DNA of 64,000 nucleotides from positions 128,001 to 192,000 of the forward strand of contig CAVUZH010000022.1 of assembly GCA_963745835.1 (NCBI GenBank), read 5' to 3'. The stretch's first letter is position 1, and every line of letters begins with the position of its first letter. Under the pieces are notes generated by a model. The model was not told where the DNA came from, ran no database searches, and saw only the letters and a list, made by a program, of their open reading frames with translations. Positions 1,097-8,325 of the stretch are shown here, piece by piece. The DNA is from an uncultured delta proteobacterium. Its GTDB lineage: Bacteria > Desulfobacterota > Binatia > UBA9968. A program made the position numbers and the translations under genes.

Positions 1097-2659
1097 CTAC
1101 AAATTCCTTGGTAGTGAAGAATCAATTGGAGGGCTCCGTCTTAGCGTCACCCCATTCAAAATCCCGACCGGCAACACGATGGTGAACGTTGTGCCTTTGC
1201 CGATTTCGCTCCGGTATGTGATCGTTCCCTTATGATCGCTAATGATCTGCTGCACAATCGGAAGCCCCAAACCCGTGCCCTCGGGTTTGGTGGTTCTAAA
1301 TAACTGGAAGACATCAACGCCATGGGCTATTCCCTCACCCGTGTCCGTCACTTCCAGAATAACCCCTCCCTCTGAAGCAGTGGCCTTGACGATTAACCTT
1401 CCGCCGTTGGGCATCGCTTCGACGGCGTTCTTGCAGAGGTTCAAAATCACCTGCTTTATTTTTTCGCGATCGACAACCATGCCTGGAACGTTTTCCAACT
1501 GAGTTTGGAGGGCGATTTTTGTCGCCCTATACATAGGCAATTGGGCGCTCAGCACCTCCTCGATAATCTGCGTCAAATCAGCCGGGCGCAGGTTGAGCCT
1601 CTGAGGTCGCGCAAACGTTCGATAGTCGGAAAGCAAGGTTGCCAAGCGCTGGACTTCTTGAAATGCGATCTCCAGCGTTTCCTGCAAAGCCGGATCGATC
1701 TTGTGAGCCGTTTCGAGAATCGATTTGACGATTTGTAAGGAAGTGGAAATGCCATTGAGCGGATTACCGATCTCATGGGCAAATACCGCGGCGGTTGTGC
1801 CCAACGTGGCGAGTCGCTCTTTCTCCTGAAGCAATCTCTCCGCCTGCTTGCGTTCCGTGATGTCGCGAATTGCCGCGCTCATCAAAACTTCCCGCCCCGT
1901 TGCAATCGGGCTTAAGCTGATTTCAACCGGGAACTCGCTGCCGTCGCGGCGAACGGCAAATAACTCCATGCCCGTTCCCATCGGCCGAACGTGCGGATTT
2001 TTTGCAAACAAGCCGCGGTGATCCTGATGTCGCTCACGGAATCGTGCGGGAACAAGCCGTTCCACAGGCTTTCCCAGAAGTTGTTTTCGATCATAACCGA
2101 ACAGTCTTTCTGTTTGTGAATTTATCAAGGTAATCATTCCTTGCGCATCGACGATCACCATAGCGTCAGGCGCCGACTCGAGTAAGGAACGGAAAAGCGT
2201 CTCGGTTTCTCTTAATTTCTGCGCGGCAAGTTCGCGCTCGGCGATTTGTTGTTGCAGTTCCTGATTGACCATTTCGAGCGAGCGCGGGCTAGGAAGCGCC
2301 AGCGCCTGCGGAATCAAAGGCCAAAGGGTCGCGGCAGTTGCCACCGAAAGACCGGCGGTGATCGCCTTGATACTTCCGTCCAACCAATAAACCGGTTCCC
2401 AGAGCTTCCATATTCCCATCAGGTGTGTGGTGCCGCATGCAAAGATGAACGCGCTGAACATCAGAAACATCCAGTTAAACGCAAGATCTCGTCGCTTACG
2501 CACGAAGATAACCAGAGCGACAGGTATTAGGTAGTAAGAAATTGCGATCAAAGAATCCGACGCTATATACAACCAGAGGAGCGGTCTCTGCCAGAGAAAA
2601 CAGTGGCCGTGCGGCTCGAAGCCCTCGGATGTAAAAAAGTTGCTCAAAGTTTCGAACAT
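1097..2659 (-). CDS. Sensor histidine kinase with N-terminal ETR1-like ethylene-binding 3-TM domain, PAS/PAC, HisKA and HATPase
   Basis: SDSLIAISYYLIP...FIFACGTTH...IKAITA; PAS (LLESAPDAMVIVD, RRDGSEFPVEISLS); H-box FAHEIGNPL; N box NLCKNAVEA; G boxes DTGEGI and GTGLGL. Confidence 0.92.
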   Translation of the reverse strand: MFETLSNFFTSEGFEPHGHCFLWQRPLLWLYIASDSLIAISYYLIPVALVIFVRKRRDLAFNWMFLMFSAFIFACGTTHLMGIWKLWEPVYWLDGSIKAITAGLSVATAATLWPLIPQALALPSPRSLEMVNQELQQQIAERELAAQKLRETETLFRSLLESAPDAMVIVDAQGMITLINSQTERLFGYDRKQLLGKPVERLVPARFRERHQDHRGLFAKNPHVRPMGTGMELFAVRRDGSEFPVEISLSPIATGREVLMSAAIRDITERKQAERLLQEKERLATLGTTAAVFAHEIGNPLNGISTSLQIVKSILETAHKIDPALQETLEIAFQEVQRLATLLSDYRTFARPQRLNLRPADLTQIIEEVLSAQLPMYRATKIALQTQLENVPGMVVDREKIKQVILNLCKNAVEAMPNGGRLIVKATASEGGVILEVTDTGEGIAHGVDVFQLFRTTKPEGTGLGLPIVQQIISDHKGTITYRSEIGKGTTFTIVLPVGILNGVTLRRSPPIDSSLPRNL

Positions 2660-2720
2660 AGTGATTTCCCTGCACGCCGCCAGCCGCGCGAACTGACACG
2701 GCTATCAACGGAGTGTCGCG

Positions 2721-3077
2721 TTAGTGCGTAAACTGAATTGTATCAAGCAGATCGCGCAAAGAGATCGGCTTTTCGAAGTAAAGCGCGCCTACCGCTGCGG
2801 CTTCTGCTTGAGCTTGCTCGGAGCCGAACGCAGTAATGAGAATGAGACGTTTTCCCGAACCCCTACAACTTTGATACTTTAGGACGTCTAGGCCGTTCAC
2901 CTTTCCCGGCAGACGAAAGTCAGAGATGACGATCTCAAAATCGACCCGAGAAATAAGCTCTAACGCAGCCTCGCCATTGTCGGTCTGGTGAACCGTGAAT
3001 TCGGCTTGCTGAAGAAACATTGCCAAGTTCCGGCGGGACAAAGGGTTGTCTTCAACCAGAAGCAGATTACACGACAT
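2721..3077 (-). CDS. Single-domain response regulator (CheY-like receiver)
   Basis: LLVED, ISDFRLPG, ILITA and EKP motifs; directly upstream of the kinase on the same strand. Confidence 0.9.
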   Translation of the reverse strand: MSCNLLLVEDNPLSRRNLAMFLQQAEFTVHQTDNGEAALELISRVDFEIVISDFRLPGKVNGLDVLKYQSCRGSGKRLILITAFGSEQAQAEAAAVGALYFEKPISLRDLLDTIQFTH

Positions 3078-3392
3078 GCCGGGACAAATTAAACCAAGAT
3101 TGTATTTTAAGCAACAAAAACTTCAGCTTAAGGCGGCAAATTGCGCTTTAGAAACAGCTTCTGTGAAGCTCTTTAGCGCTGCCAAACAGCGCCGCCGTAG
3201 CAAATTGATACAAAATATTTCGATCGATGAAGCTGCTGCATGTAAGCGAGCAGCTTAGGCAGTTTTTCTAGTTTCGCGGAGGCACTATAAAGCTATTGAG
3301 ACCGCGTTTGCATGCTTTTTGTTACTTAGCAGACAAGTCCCTCTTGACCGTTGAGCCCCGATATTTGAGCTCAGAGATCTCTGCCCAGCCGG

Positions 3393-3953
3393 TTACGGCG
3401 TCGCACGCACCGCGGGCCGCTCGAGCAAACGCTCCATCCAAGCTTTGACGTGCGGCAAGTCATCACCAATGCTCACCTGATAACGCTCGCGTCTGACGAA
3501 GAAAGGAATGTAAGTGATATCCGCGAGAGAGTATCCATCGGCTATGTACTCTCGCCCTTGCATTTGTCGATTGAGATTCTCGAGATACGTTCGAAGCTCC
3601 GTTCCGGACTCTTCGACTTTGTAGTTGTGGGCGATATAACCGGCGGCGCGCTGCACGCGGGTGTTGCAGTAGTCGATCCAAATTCTTATGCGCGCCCGGG
3701 CCAGTGGGTCTTTGGGCATCAACGGCGCTTCCGGATACTGTTCTTCCAGGTACTCGTCGATAATCGCGGACTCGTAAACAACCGCATCACCATCGACCAG
3801 AACCGGAACTTTGCCGTAAGGATTTAACTCGAGAAGATCTTTGGGCTTGTTGCCGAGGTCGCATTCGATCAGATCATAGGGAATCTTTTTTTCCGCCAGG
3901 ACAAGCCTTGTCCTGTGAGCGTAGGGTCAGGGGCCGTAAGAAAAGAGCTTCAT
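3393..3953 (-). CDS. Glutathione S-transferase family protein (omega/SspA-like), probable selenoprotein with UGA=Sec at codon 9; 186 aa
   Basis: SD GGAGGT, then ATG at 3953: MKLFSYGP-TGA-PYAHRTRLVLAEKKIPYDLIECDLGNKPKDLLELNPYGKVPVLVDGDAVVYESAIIDEYLEEQYP..., in frame with ORF 3393-3722 (GST C-domain, YSLADITYIPF). Confidence 0.88.
3894..3921 (-). promoter_or_regulatory. Putative bacterial SECIS stem-loop
   Basis: mRNA after UGA (3927-3929): CGC-(UCA bulge)-CAGGACA-[AGGCU]-UGUCCUG-GCG; loop begins 18 nt after UGA and has G at its second position. Confidence 0.75.
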
Positions 3954-4211
3954 GACGTCACCTCCATCTGATGGCCTTGTACCACCTGAGAGCCGCGGCG
4001 GCAACAATGCTGATTGATCGAAAGAATTTTTTTACTCCTCAACGTAGAGCGACTTCTTCTCTCAAATTAATTTTAGCGCCGCATCTTAGCAATTGATGCG
4101 CGGGCAGATGGTTGACACCCGCCTACGCTATGCGATAAGCGGCCATATAAACCTTTACTGGAATAACGTTTTCACTCTGCATGACGCCGGCAGTTAGCTG
4201 GAGGAGGCCGC

Positions 4212-5141
4212 ATGATTATCGATACGCACTTTCATGCCTTTCCAAAGAAATTTCTCGAGCTCGTGCCCGAGCAATCACAAAGCGACGTTCGCGGCGTGGG
4301 ATTCCACGGCTTTGACCATCAGGAATACCTCGATGTGATGGATCAACACGGCATCGATGTCGGCGTGCTCTCCAATACCGGCGGGCGAATCGAACAGGGC
4401 GGCGACCGGCGCAAGGCGCTGGAGCTGTGCACCATCATCAACGACACATTTGCCGAAGCCCACGCAAAGCACCCGCGCCGCTTCAAAGCGTTCGCCCGTT
4501 TGCCGATGGTCAACCTTGATGATTGTGTCCGGGAGCTCGAGCGGTGTTACCGTGATCTCAACATGCATGGCGTGATCCTGTCGACCAATCTGGCCGGAAG
4601 ATACCTCGACGAGCCGGAATTCAAACCCTTCTGGGACGCGCTCGAGTCAGGTGGAAAACCGCTGTTTCTTCATCCGGCCAATGCGCCATGCCAAGCCAAT
4701 TGGAACAAATATTCGCTGCACCAGAAGCTCCTCTGGCCCACCGACAGCTCTCTGGCGATATCGCGCATCGTTTATAGCGGCGTATTCGATCACTATCCGG
4801 CCATCAAACTCATTGCCTCGCATCTCGGCGGCATGCTTCTGCTTTACCTCGACCGGCTCAACTGGCACGAGGGAAATGTAGAGTGCCGGCGAGAGCCGGA
4901 GGAATACTTTAAAAAGATGTACTACGATACCGCCGGTCCGATCCGCGCCGAATTCATCAAGCTCGTCTACGACACCGTCGGTCCCGATCAGATCCTGTTC
5001 GGCGCCGATTATCCGCACGGCAGAGGCGGCCGCGACGATCAGTTCTATCCGATGACTTTAGCGGCGATGTCGAAGCTCGATATTCCAGACAGTGATAAAC
5101 AGAAGGTTTATTATCTAAACGCGCAGAAACTCGGATTCTGA
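4212..5141 (+). CDS. Amidohydrolase family 2 protein (ACMSD/LigW-like decarboxylase or hydrolase)
   Basis: IIDTHFH, LFLHP, SHLGG, YYDTA and ILFGADYPH motifs; SD GGAGGAGG. Confidence 0.9.
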   Translation: MIIDTHFHAFPKKFLELVPEQSQSDVRGVGFHGFDHQEYLDVMDQHGIDVGVLSNTGGRIEQGGDRRKALELCTIINDTFAEAHAKHPRRFKAFARLPMVNLDDCVRELERCYRDLNMHGVILSTNLAGRYLDEPEFKPFWDALESGGKPLFLHPANAPCQANWNKYSLHQKLLWPTDSSLAISRIVYSGVFDHYPAIKLIASHLGGMLLLYLDRLNWHEGNVECRREPEEYFKKMYYDTAGPIRAEFIKLVYDTVGPDQILFGADYPHGRGGRDDQFYPMTLAAMSKLDIPDSDKQKVYYLNAQKLGF

Positions 5142-5267
5142 CGGGCCGCTGAAAAAGACCCATATGCTTCGTTGCACTCGGTCGGCTCCGCTCCAACGTA
5201 CTACAACGTACGTCTTCGCTCGTCGATCTTCGTACGCCTCGCATCTGGATCTTTTTGAGCAGCCTGT
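5141..5267. mobile_element. MITE/REP-like element of about 127 bp with imperfect terminal inverted repeats
   Basis: Left end ACGGGCCGCTGAAAAAGACCCATATGC versus reverse complement of right end ACAGGCTGCTCAAAAAGATCCAGATGC (22/27 match); no coding capacity. Confidence 0.65.
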
Positions 5268-5307
5268 AGGAGATATTTCCACCAGTCGCTGAATTAAGGA
5301 GGAATCT

Positions 5308-5664
5308 ATGAGCAATCGATTGGAGCACGTTGCCATCTATTGCAAAGATATCAATGAATCGATCGAGTTTTATCGAGCCCACTTCGGCGGTCAGCCCACC
5401 GCTATCAGAAAAGGCGCCGCGGGCTACTCGTTCTGTTTTGTGACTATCGATGGCACGCCGTCGATACAGCTAATGGAATCGTCCGACAAAACCGGCGTAC
5501 ACCACTACGGTTTCATCAGCGATGATATCGAGCAGGCGGCAAAAGAATTCAAAGCAAAGAACGCGCGAATCCTGCGCGAAAATCGTGATCAGTCAGGCAA
5601 ACTCACAACTATCTTTGTACAGGATCCGCACGGGCTAGAGATGGAGATCCGCTCGGCCCGTTAG
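5308..5664 (+). CDS. VOC/glyoxalase family protein
   Basis: LEHVAIYCKDINESIEFY, HHYGF and FVQDPHGLEMEI metal-ligand motifs; SD AAGGAGG. Confidence 0.9.
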   Translation: MSNRLEHVAIYCKDINESIEFYRAHFGGQPTAIRKGAAGYSFCFVTIDGTPSIQLMESSDKTGVHHYGFISDDIEQAAKEFKAKNARILRENRDQSGKLTTIFVQDPHGLEMEIRSAR

Positions 5665-5803
5665 CCAGGGGGGGATCCAGAGAGTCTTTTTGGAAACTCT
5701 CCGATTGCTTTCATGTCGGAACCCAGAGCTACTCAGTTGACATCGTCTGACCTGGGTACGTAGCTTCTCGCAAGGCCGTTCCACCAGCCCTTGAGGAGGA
5801 ACA

Positions 5804-6826
5804 ATGTTTACCGCTCGTTACCAACGCAGCGCCGGCATCATCTTCTTTGCTGTGATCTGGGTGGCGATTGCCGCTGAAGCCGCGCGAGGCCAGGCAAAAC
5901 AGGACGACATCGCCATCGGCTATGCATCCCCGAGCGGCGTCATGACGCCGCTGTACGTCGCGCAGGAACAGGGCTTGTTCAAAAAACACGGCCTGGGAGT
6001 AAAGGAGTTGCTTCTGCTCCGTGGTACCGGGCCAGCCGCGGCGCAGATGCTGGTCGCGGGTACGGCGCCGATCGCCGCCCTCGGCGGCGCTCTCGTGGAA
6101 GGCGCGATTCGCGGCGCCGGCATCGCCTACATCGCCAGCACATCCAATCACCTGATCTTTTCGATCTATTCACGTTCGGAAATCGCCCGTCCGGAAGATC
6201 TCAAAGGAAAAACCGTCGCAGTCGATGCCAAGGGCGGCTCCATCGAACTGGCCACGATCATCGCCCTGAAACAGTTCGGTCTGACTCTCGGCAAAGACGT
6301 GAGCTCGGTTTATCTCGGCGGACCCGTGCCGCAACTAGGCGCTCTGGAAAAAGGCATCGTCGATGCGACGACGTTGTCGGCGCCGACAACCTTGCGCGCC
6401 AGAAAGATGGGCTATAAAGAGTTGATCAACATCGGCGCGCTCAAGCTCAGCTATGTTCACACCGCTATCGGGGTAAACCGCGCCTTCGCCAAGAATAATC
6501 CAGAAAGTGTCGAGGCCTTTCTCAAAGCTTATATCGAAGCGATGAAAATGACCCGAGAACAACCGGATGTCGGAATGAAGGCGATCGCCAAGTACACTCA
6601 GATCGCCGACCCCGAGGCGCTCAAGGCCACTTACGAGACCTTTCTACCCGCATTTCAACAACGCGTGCCTTATGTTTCGCGCGACTCGGTTCAGGGCGTG
6701 CTGAACTTCTCTAGTTCAGCGGAGGCTAACGCTCAACGCGCCGACGATTTTATCGACCATTCTTTGTTAAAGAAGATCGAAGCATCATCTTTTGTTAACA
6801 AACTTTATGGCGACGGCAACCCGTAA
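5804..6826 (+). CDS. ABC transporter substrate-binding protein, NMT1/THI5/SsuA-like
   Basis: Signal peptide; PLYVAQEQGLFKKHGL, DLKGKTVAV, FAKNNPESVEAFLKA. Confidence 0.88.
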   Translation: MFTARYQRSAGIIFFAVIWVAIAAEAARGQAKQDDIAIGYASPSGVMTPLYVAQEQGLFKKHGLGVKELLLLRGTGPAAAQMLVAGTAPIAALGGALVEGAIRGAGIAYIASTSNHLIFSIYSRSEIARPEDLKGKTVAVDAKGGSIELATIIALKQFGLTLGKDVSSVYLGGPVPQLGALEKGIVDATTLSAPTTLRARKMGYKELINIGALKLSYVHTAIGVNRAFAKNNPESVEAFLKAYIEAMKMTREQPDVGMKAIAKYTQIADPEALKATYETFLPAFQQRVPYVSRDSVQGVLNFSSSAEANAQRADDFIDHSLLKKIEASSFVNKLYGDGNP

Positions 6827-6936
6827 TGAATTCAGGTGCAGCCGCTAACGACCGCTCCAATGAGATAGAATCCGAGAAGCTGGCGGCTACAGAACCCGCT
6901 CTCAGTCTGAGATTTCGAAGGCAGCGAGGATAACCA

Positions 6937-8325
6937 ATGCCGAGAGATATGCGCAGTTGGATTATGCAGTTGGAAGAAGCGGGCGAGCTCATCCGTATCG
7001 CCAAGCCTGTGCATCCGCACACGCAAATGGGCGCGCTGTTATATCAGTCGCGTGAAAGAGGGTTGCTGTTCGAAAACGTCGACGGCTTTCCGGGATGGCG
7101 CAGCCTGGGCATGGCCCCCGCCAACTTGCGCCACGCGGCGATTGCCTTCGATACCAGCATTGAAAAATTAATTCCCACCGCCGCCGAAAGAACTCTCAAA
7201 CGACGCCCCGTCGAGCTGGTCTCAACCGGTCCTGTCAAGGAAGTCATCCTGAAGGGCGATCAAGTCGATCTGACGAAGTTGCCGGCGCATGTAGCAGGCA
7301 GTGAAGAGACTCCCTACATCGCATCCGGATTGATGGTTGCGCGGGATCCGGACAGCGGCATCCGCAACGTCGCGTTCCACCGGTTGCAGATCAAAGGGCC
7401 GAGAAAAACCGGAGCTTTGATCGTACCGCGGCACACCCGCGAGATTCTCAACAAGCACGAGGCGCGCAATCAGCCGATGCCCGTTTCTATTTTTATCGGC
7501 CATCATCCGCTTTACTACATGGCGGCGGCGAGCACCGGCGCGTTCGAAATGGATGAGCTGGAATTGGCCGGCGGCTTGATCGGCGAATCCGCCAGGGTGG
7601 TGAAATGCGAGACCAACGATCTCGAAGTGCCGTTCGACGCGGAGATCGTTCTTGAAGGACGCATTTTGCCAAACGTGCGCGAAGACGAGGGGCCTTTCTC
7701 CGAATTCCATGATTATTACGTCGCCGGCATGGGCAAAAATCCGGTGATCGAAATCGATTGCATCACCAGACGCCACGATGCAATCTTCAAAGCGATCCAG
7801 AATGGCTCGGAGGTCGAAGGCTGCATCTTTCACAAAGTTCCTTTCGGCGTCGCGGTCTACAATCACATCAAAAACATCGGCGGCTATGTCAATTTGCACA
7901 ATCTTCTGGTGCTACCCGGCTTGTTCGGCATCGTCGTGCAAATGACGCCGCGCTTCTACGGCGAGGCGAAGCAAATTTTAATGGGGGTTCTGTCGAGTCC
8001 AATCCTGCACCCGAAGGTGGCCATCGCGGTCGATGAAGACGTCAATATTTTCAATTACTGGGAAGTTCTCTGGGCGGTCAATACGCGCTGCAACCCGCAA
8101 GACGACATCATCGTCATTCCCGGAACTCGCATTCACCCGATGGATCCGACCGGTGTCGAGCCCGTGCCGCCGGGAGGACCTTACTGGCACCGGGTCGGCG
8201 GCAAAGTAATCATCGACGCCACCAAGCCGCCGCTTTGCGCCGGCGAACAGGCGCGCCAACCTTTTCAGCGGCTAAAACCCATGGGATGGGAAACAGTTCG
8301 TCTGGAAGATTTCTTGCCCGGATAG
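6937..8325 (+). CDS. UbiD-family prFMN-dependent (de)carboxylase
   Basis: HRLQ, EIVLEG, EGPFSEF, VDEDVN, IIDATKP motifs. Confidence 0.92.
   Translation: MPRDMRSWIMQLEEAGELIRIAKPVHPHTQMGALLYQSRERGLLFENVDGFPGWRSLGMAPANLRHAAIAFDTSIEKLIPTAAERTLKRRPVELVSTGPVKEVILKGDQVDLTKLPAHVAGSEETPYIASGLMVARDPDSGIRNVAFHRLQIKGPRKTGALIVPRHTREILNKHEARNQPMPVSIFIGHHPLYYMAAASTGAFEMDELELAGGLIGESARVVKCETNDLEVPFDAEIVLEGRILPNVREDEGPFSEFHDYYVAGMGKNPVIEIDCITRRHDAIFKAIQNGSEVEGCIFHKVPFGVAVYNHIKNIGGYVNLHNLLVLPGLFGIVVQMTPRFYGEAKQILMGVLSSPILHPKVAIAVDEDVNIFNYWEVLWAVNTRCNPQDDIIVIPGTRIHPMDPTGVEPVPPGGPYWHRVGGKVIIDATKPPLCAGEQARQPFQRLKPMGWETVRLEDFLPG

Follow-up and report, generated by a model that had tools for sequence, protein, structure and literature searches.

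The window analysed here is a stretch of 64,000 nucleotides from an uncultured delta proteobacterium (GCA_963745835.1, contig CAVUZH010000022.1, positions 128,001 to 192,000). On its minus strand, at 3393..3953, lies a gene for a protein resembling glutathione S-transferases (GSTs) whose ninth codon is an in-frame TGA. We regard this, with little reservation, as a genuine selenoprotein gene, a candidate for read-through that would encode a two-domain GST-like enzyme of 186 residues with selenocysteine (Sec) as its active-site residue. The features on which this reading is built are the following.

3393..3953, minus strand: putative coding sequence of the Sec-containing GST (Sec-GST), 186 residues plus TAA, with TGA taken as Sec (read-through, Pfam, orthologues)
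3960..3965, minus strand: Shine–Dalgarno (SD) sequence GGAGGT, with a 6-nt spacer to the ATG (reading of the sequence)
3951..3953, minus strand: ATG start codon (sequence; the amino acids of codons 2-8 are kept whilst synonymous codons vary)
3927..3929, minus strand: UGA codon 9, predicted Sec, in the motif G-P-U-P-Y-A-H-R (TGA in orthologues, Cys aligned in homologues)
3894..3921, minus strand: predicted selenocysteine insertion sequence (SECIS) hairpin (folding, orthologue comparison, bacterial SECIS (bSECIS) model)
3726..3953, minus strand: GST N-terminal thioredoxin-like domain, residues 1-76 (GST_N_3 at residues 3-76, GST_N_2 at residues 9-72)
3414..3617, minus strand: GST C-terminal helical domain, residues 113-180 (Pfam GST_C, 36.6 bits)
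3393..3395, minus strand: TAA stop codon (frame open from the ATG with the TGA read through)

Read on the minus strand, the frame begins MKLFSYGP, meets the TGA at 3929-3927 and continues as PYAHRTRLVLAEK. The original prediction, made from the letters of the DNA, had described just this arrangement of a GGAGGT SD, an ATG at 3953, MKLFSYGP, the TGA and complete GST domains, and both the translation and the Pfam matches bear it out: GST_N_2 (PF13409) scores 76.5 bits against a cut-off of 25, GST_N_3, GST_N and GST_C are matched too, and the protein has the thioredoxin-like N domain and helical C domain found in Cys-type GSTs such as the omega, lambda and DHAR-like enzymes. Also as described there, the track of open reading frames (ORFs) holds only the last 109 amino acids, the table-11 listing yielding 3393..3722 alone with a TTG start. 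An alignment of 44 sequences shows no change at P50, S62 (in an E-S motif) or D145 and almost none at V49; P50, which we take to be the cis-Pro position, and S62 of E61-S62 are presumably residues of the glutathione site. A scan of 3050-4250 gave one weak promoter-like site, no more than in shuffled sequence, and no terminator.

Conservation of the TGA was followed in 61 related genomes, including the source genome (G000), that span three families and 27 genera of a single order, the search reading through stops. Here we consider the 70 matches of at least 54% identity among the matches listed, beyond which lie 66 weaker ones. Exactly one TGA is present in 68 of the 68 listed matches that reach codon 9, the remaining two beginning at residues 24 and 15, and at least one TGA form is found among the matches listed in 56 of the 61 genomes. 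As for the other five, the copy in G010 is cut by a contig end, and for G031, G033, G035 and G048 the matches listed include a Ser-type paralogue only. Three groups of TGA-containing sequence can be told apart. Orthologues of the first group (G-P-U-P-Y-A-H-R) have TGA at the same codon in all 29 sequences read, a count that leaves out the contig-cut copy L044, paralogues of the second (C-H-T-U-P-Y-A-H-R) have it in 18 of 18, and the more distant third group (W-P-T-U-P-W-C-Q-K) has it in both of its sequences. Two of the genomes, G012 and G018, are unpublished; they enter the 61-genome count, the selB count given below and, as one row (L031), the alignments, and no conclusion hangs on them.

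The codons ahead of the TGA are informative in their own right. Across the 47 aligned orthologues, in every one of which the TGA is kept, Leu3 is invariant whilst being written with six different codons and Ser5 is invariant whilst being written with four, so that these codons appear to be under purifying selection at the protein level. Ahead of the start codon, most of the 29 rows of orthologues show a purine-rich stretch resembling GGAGG or GAGG (judged by eye, uncounted). Upstream codons kept through synonymous change, together with an SD-like stretch, exclude a nonsense mutation or a sequencing error as the source of the TGA.

Were the TGA to terminate translation all the same, the locus would be a pseudogene, or would give a shorter protein from an internal start (the ORFs of 109-177 residues). 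Gene finders run with table 11 do return 109 amino acids here, and of the best 120 public protein matches 119 are N-terminally truncated, at 136-177 amino acids, the other one being read with Trp. A product of that kind would be without the catalytic motif and without strand beta-1, and it would leave unaccounted for the purifying selection on eight upstream codons, the retained SD and start, and a TGA held at one codon in all 68 listed matches from three families. Moreover, the sampled public ORFs begin at several different downstream residues, which suggests arbitrary picks by the callers and not one real start. We consider the shorter protein or pseudogene improbable in the extreme. The expectation that pipelines would call such genes pseudogenes did not hold, in that public callers, across the best 120 matches, give truncated ORFs here instead.

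Assembled reads from other sources also cover the codon. Sequence of this part of the window turns up in runs of soil and rhizosphere material from 11 studies, and three contigs from metatranscriptome libraries of different studies span both the codon and the hairpin (X15, 3323-4012; X16, 3617-3960; X17, 3856-4030). They carry many differences elsewhere and none listed in 3856-3955, with five differences outside the list, and at 3927-3929, where a check of reads had been proposed, all three cover the codon with no differing letter listed. The X15 contig, 712 nt in length with an adapter-like end, holds the GST gene alone and about 60-70 nt on each side; its extent would fit a monocistronic transcript, this being the reach of a contig and not a mapped end.

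The second element required for recoding, a hairpin immediately 3' of the UGA, is also in place. Its upper stem of 8 bp is formed by CAGGACAA (3915-3908) paired with UUGUCCUG (3904-3897) around an apical loop GGC (3907-3905), its lower stem of 3 bp by CGC (3921-3919) paired with GCG (3896-3894), and the spacing from the UGA to the apical loop is 19 nt. The hairpin of the original prediction, a 7-bp stem with the loop AGGCU, is the same structure with the weak A-U closing pair left open. Published bSECIS constraints (loop of 3-9 nt, upper stem of 4-16 bp, a G within the first two positions of the loop, UGA-to-loop distance of 16-37 nt and minimum free energy of at most -7.5 kcal/mol, as set out in the legend to Fig. 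2 of PMC13188914) all hold for this hairpin, with its 3-nt loop starting GG, 8-bp stem, 19-nt spacing and -13.4 kcal/mol for a 48-nt segment. In the whole assembly the pattern of UGA plus hairpin occurs at two Sec-GST genes only, whilst Rfam, searched over 3300-4100 at a permissive E-value, gives no matches.

Evidence of another sort comes from synonymous sites. Among the 47 aligned Sec orthologues there are 102 columns in which at least 35 rows keep one degenerate amino acid, and zero synonymous variation is seen in just three of these, codons 14 (AGG), 16 (AGG) and 18 (GTC), all of them within the stem. Outside codons 13-20 the mean synonymous entropy is 1.31 bits (n = 95, minimum 0.30). Codon 17 is always CTT when it encodes Leu (30 rows) and always ATT when it encodes Ile (17 rows). 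The long frames of the window use AGG less than any other Arg codon (8.6%), and among the Thr codons they use ACA least (13%). In-register pairing is found in 91.4% of cells, as against 28-47% when the partners are slid by one to three columns, and 28 rows have C-G as the lowest pair of the upper stem, three have U-G and one has U-A, whilst some of the others are unpaired there. The hairpin core has an identical sequence in all 47 orthologues compared. The stem sequence is conserved at synonymous sites, as a true SECIS element had been expected to be, and the comparison with orthologues places the putative hairpin beyond chance. The third group of paralogues has a different hairpin sequence, of 5-6 bp (GUGCG-GAU-CGCAC), one base farther from the UGA.

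The genome encodes what is needed to use such an element, which answers the call for a search for sel genes. Its assembly (7.28 Mb in 25 contigs, 97.1% complete) contains a tRNA-Sec (Rfam 74.2 bits; called SeC with anticodon TCA by ARAGORN) as well as selA (608.6 bits), selB (394.3 bits) and selD (383.4 bits), all above curated cut-offs. selA, selB and selD adjoin at C22:65479-70161 (L009, L010, L018) on the contig of the window itself (C22:128001-192000), a cluster that lies some 58 kb before the window. The selD gene has one in-frame TGA of its own, which makes it a Sec-containing SelD. Amongst the relatives, selB is above cut-off in 55 of 61.

A selenium-free reading of the UGA, in which a near-cognate or suppressor tRNA or an altered code would put Trp, Cys or Gly at this position, has one public protein in its favour: P0001 (211 amino acids) has Trp at the Sec position and an extension of 25 residues upstream. 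This entry resembles a gene call made with a table in which TGA is Trp, on a contig of 1 kb, and Trp never occupies the site among close homologues. TGA is otherwise an ordinary stop in the source genome, terminating 15 of the 40 stop-to-stop frames of at least 250 codons in the window, and selA and selB are without internal stops. With the hairpin and the full Sec machinery present as well, we find decoding without selenium hardly credible, and hold with high confidence to recoding by SelB and the hairpin.

What Sec replaces can be read from the homologues. They were sampled as the best 150 cluster representatives, with clusters drawn at 50% identity. The position of codon 9 is covered by 128 of these, and the residue there is Cys in 99, Ser in 27, Ile in one and Trp in one; the nearest full-length representatives, at about 50% identity, read C-P-F-A-H-R-T-R and C-P-Y-A-L-R-T-R. 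U-P-Y aligns with the C-P-F/Y of Cys-type GSTs, Sec standing for Cys at the start of helix 1. The expectation of Cys at the aligned position is borne out by the 99 of 128 representatives with their C-P-F/Y motif, and the proposal of a U-P-Y Sec-GST draws support from this Cys counterpart, from the Sec machinery and from the conservation of TGA and hairpin. A quick maximum-likelihood tree built from 84 rows unites the 34 sequences of Sec groups 1 and 2 in one clade, with a Shimodaira–Hasegawa-like approximate likelihood ratio test (SH-aLRT) value of 95; this clade is placed among the Cys representatives, apart from the U-P-W-C type. The tree was rooted at the midpoint only, and for this reason the direction of the change between Cys and Sec is inferred.

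The source genome has 15 GST-like matches, with TGA in two only. The second of these (C3:947431-947982, L067) is 55% identical to the first, reads C-H-T-U-P-Y-A-H-R and has the same hairpin core; a Ser-type paralogue (S-P-N-C; C3:959000-959587, L087) lies 11 kb from it. The third Sec-GST type, U-P-W-C (UxxC), is represented by L085 (G032:C257) and L086 (G009:C207) and was not found in the source genome; it recalls the T-U-P-W motif of a published GST selenoprotein from the Sargasso Sea.

Amongst solved structures the closest relatives are the SspA-like GSTs 4qq7, 6v91 and RegF (4hoj), at 209-221 bits in profile searches. They have the same length, no N-terminal extension, V-P and E-S motifs, and C-P-F-S-Q/H-R where the protein encoded here has U-P-Y-A-H-R, its U aligning with their Cys. 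An SspA-type regulator associated with RNA polymerase, and not an enzyme, has to be weighed for this reason: the best NCBIfam model is that of SspA (109.9 bits), and the matches in the PDB are likewise headed by structures named SspA (108 bits alone, 221 with a profile). That score is, however, far under the equivalog cut-off of NF007016 (314 bits), and the top PDB matches are atypical in bearing C-P-F, classical SspA being without Cys at this position. The P-H-P stretch of SspA is a functional motif and is present in 4qq7, 6v91 and 4hoj; here it reads P-E-A-P. A Sec codon spent on the residue also argues for redox catalysis. We rejected identification as SspA on the score (109.9 against 314 bits) and on the lack of Cys in the classical proteins, and judge a regulatory role of this kind very unlikely.

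Several observations weigh against the selenoprotein reading, or limit how far it can be taken. Incorporation of Sec at residue 9 is itself predicted from sequence. The fold of the single sequence is ordinary in stability (-15.5 kcal/mol, z = -1.7, with 11 of 200 shuffled sequences at least equal), and the case for the hairpin must rest on the orthologue comparison as a result. The helix barely varies, which leaves few double changes and little covariation to be seen. The hairpin moreover overlaps a conserved peptide, H-R-T-R-L/I-V-L, so that its conservation is partly at the protein level and only the synonymous positions speak for the RNA. In the same genomes the nearest paralogues without TGA have Ser and not Cys at the site (10 of 10), in S-P-N-C or similar motifs, with 36-45% identity on re-alignment. 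The contigs from RNA libraries fall short of proving transcription, and five of their differences stand outside the list; the contigs of one DNA run, X4, end at 3885 and resume at 3932, leaving the TGA outside their coverage. The estimate of contamination for the assembly is 9.3%, though this cannot explain the presence of the sel genes since these lie on the same contig as the window. At E <= 1e-60, selB went undetected in six of the 61 relatives that carry the TGA form, the six being fragmented assemblies that are 81-100% complete. Lastly, the gene neighbourhood, described below, yields no functional clue outside the genus.

Taking the gene to be a selenoprotein gene, we propose the following course of events. 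Translation would begin at the ATG at 3953, and the ribosome would pass the UGA at codon 9 without terminating, SelB carrying Sec-tRNA(Sec) having bound the loop of the hairpin in the coding region, 19 nt downstream, and delivered Sec at UGA9. In the protein, Sec of U-P-Y-A-H-R would take the place of the catalytic Cys (C-P-F/Y) or Ser beside the glutathione site formed by P50 and E61-S62. Its selenolate might attack an oxidised substrate, be it the sulfur of a disulfide or of a glutathionylated group, or a hydroperoxide, to form a selenenylsulfide with glutathione, either directly or by way of Se-OH, from which a second glutathione would regenerate the selenol. We infer, in other words, glutathione-dependent redox catalysis via an Se-S intermediate. 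Glutathione synthesis is evidently within the organism's means: the genes gshB (399 bits) and gshA, the latter for a glutamate-cysteine ligase of the plant type (489 bits), are above their cut-offs, whilst no gshA of the E. coli type was found in the genome.

By analogy, human omega-class GSTO1 (1eem) may serve as a model for the Se-S chemistry proposed here. GSTO1 forms a mixed disulfide with glutathione. It has a Cys-type C-P-F at helix 1 and matches residues 2-184 of the Sec-GST at 86.8 bits alone and 164.9 bits with a profile. Unlike the Sec-GST, it is a eukaryotic Cys enzyme with about 23 extra residues at its N-terminus (chain 25-214 against query 2-184); the omega-class extension ahead of the catalytic residue is missing here, Sec being residue 9.

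Activity as a thiol transferase, a deglutathionylase or a reductase, as originally proposed, is plausible, but glutathione peroxidase activity deserves to be taken just as seriously. In this version the same selenoprotein would be a natural glutathione peroxidase: H2O2 or organic hydroperoxides would oxidise its selenol to Se-OH, and two glutathiones would return it to the reduced state. Changing Ser13 to Sec in a tau-class GST raised the kcat for hydroperoxide reduction 177-fold and created H2O2 reduction (PMC10812501), and that an engineered GST gains peroxidase activity in this way makes a natural peroxidase role a serious alternative. Tau GSTs, including PDB entries of the parent scaffold, are among the closest solved relatives of the protein, with the catalytic Ser of their S-P-F aligned with U of U-P-Y, and the nearest paralogues in these genomes are of the Ser type. 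Against this, most homologues (the 99 of 128) are of the Cys type with C-P-F/Y at this position, and no peroxide-stress genes lie beside the gene. Cys-type C-P-F/Y GSTs carry out thiol-transfer and reductase reactions. On balance we see a natural peroxidase as possible, if somewhat doubtful.

Sec-GSTs as a kind are already known, and the clade described here is a further, soil-dwelling member. In 2005 Zhang, Fomenko and Gladyshev described four GST selenoproteins in Sargasso Sea data, the published sequences showing TGA at codons 13 and 12 in the motifs T-U-P-W-V-Q-R and R-U-P-Y-A-I-R (PMC1088965). Twelve were counted in GOS (PMC2398784), and the family figures in catalogues of 2022 and 2026 (PMC9312934, PMC13188914). 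Nearly all such families, GST-like proteins included, are described as functionally uncharacterised and known from bioinformatics only (PMC13188914), and the original prediction was right that Sec-GSTs are known mainly from computation (PMC1088965, PMC13188914). Those from the Sargasso Sea share with the present protein GST homology (COG0625 / PF13409), a single N-terminal TGA followed by P-W/Y-x-x-R, the same catalytic position for Sec (motifs compared by eye), widespread Cys homologues and their standing as computational finds. They are marine fragments, whereas the sequences described here form a soil and rhizosphere clade with an invariant hairpin of its own and two to three paralogues per genome. 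In the literature searched, with bioRxiv supplements and non-CC journals outside its reach, no paper on this soil clade was found.

Other relatives differ in their own ways. Unlike 4qq7, 6v91 and 4hoj, which have Cys, the protein has Sec, falls under the SspA family cut-off and is without their P-H-P stretch. Engineered seleno-GSTs, in which Ser of a tau, theta or zeta enzyme is changed to Sec, likewise have Sec at the catalytic residue of the glutathione site (PMC10812501), but theirs is put there by chemical or auxotrophic substitution, whereas here it would be encoded, with its own SECIS element and order-wide conservation. A bolder proposal is that the order-wide soil clade stems from a separate and ancient conversion of Cys to Sec in SspA/omega-like GSTs, one shared neither with the marine Sec-GSTs nor with the U-P-W-C paralogue, and acts as a natural glutathione peroxidase. 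This combination we think unlikely, and offer tentatively; if true, it would mean a SECIS element unchanged across three families, a native counterpart of the engineered seleno-GSTs and the first Sec-GST tractable for biochemistry.

The finding leaves the general picture of Sec biology unchanged, and its value lies in a correction to annotation and in a candidate for the first biochemistry on a natural Sec-GST. In the best 120 public matches the annotation is wrong, the truncated versions being without the catalytic residue, and this truncation causes the Sec-GST to be overlooked when the selenoproteomes or the GSTs of soil bacteria are surveyed. The gene is small and stands alone, and its SECIS element is compact, which makes it a handy candidate for asking what natural Sec buys a GST scaffold.

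Within the order, a Sec-GST is found in nearly every genome sampled, often in two or three copies and with up to three paralogue types. The members of the clade are soil and rhizosphere bacteria whose public entries are labelled Deltaproteobacteria, Binatia or Syntrophobacteraceae. A search of 301 genomes drawn evenly from the phylum matched, at E <= 1e-45, only the source genome and one other genome of its family, and none of the 299 beyond that family; since this threshold drops the Cys and Ser paralogues too, the result means no more than that the rest of the genomes searched gave no sign of the Sec clade.

In the window, the genes downstream of the Sec-GST (1097-3077, minus strand) encode a response regulator that stands alone and a histidine kinase whose N-terminal domain resembles that of ethylene receptors (ETR1_N) and which also contains a PAS domain. 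Divergently upstream (4212-8325, plus strand) are genes for an Amidohydro_2 protein, a glyoxalase, an NMT1-like binding protein and a UbiD-family decarboxylase. The amidohydrolase, glyoxalase, response regulator and histidine kinase are kept as neighbours within the genus only, those at 13 loci of other genera being different, and for this reason we draw no functional inference from context. In g25, a genus for which many complete genomes exist, the Sec-GST is closely followed in five of the six loci checked by a same-strand ORF of about 290-317 amino acids (L047:604-1467, L041:537-1472, L048:605-1501, L046:2084-3004 and L045:2072-3025) that has no Pfam match, and in three of the six a Cupin_2 protein precedes.

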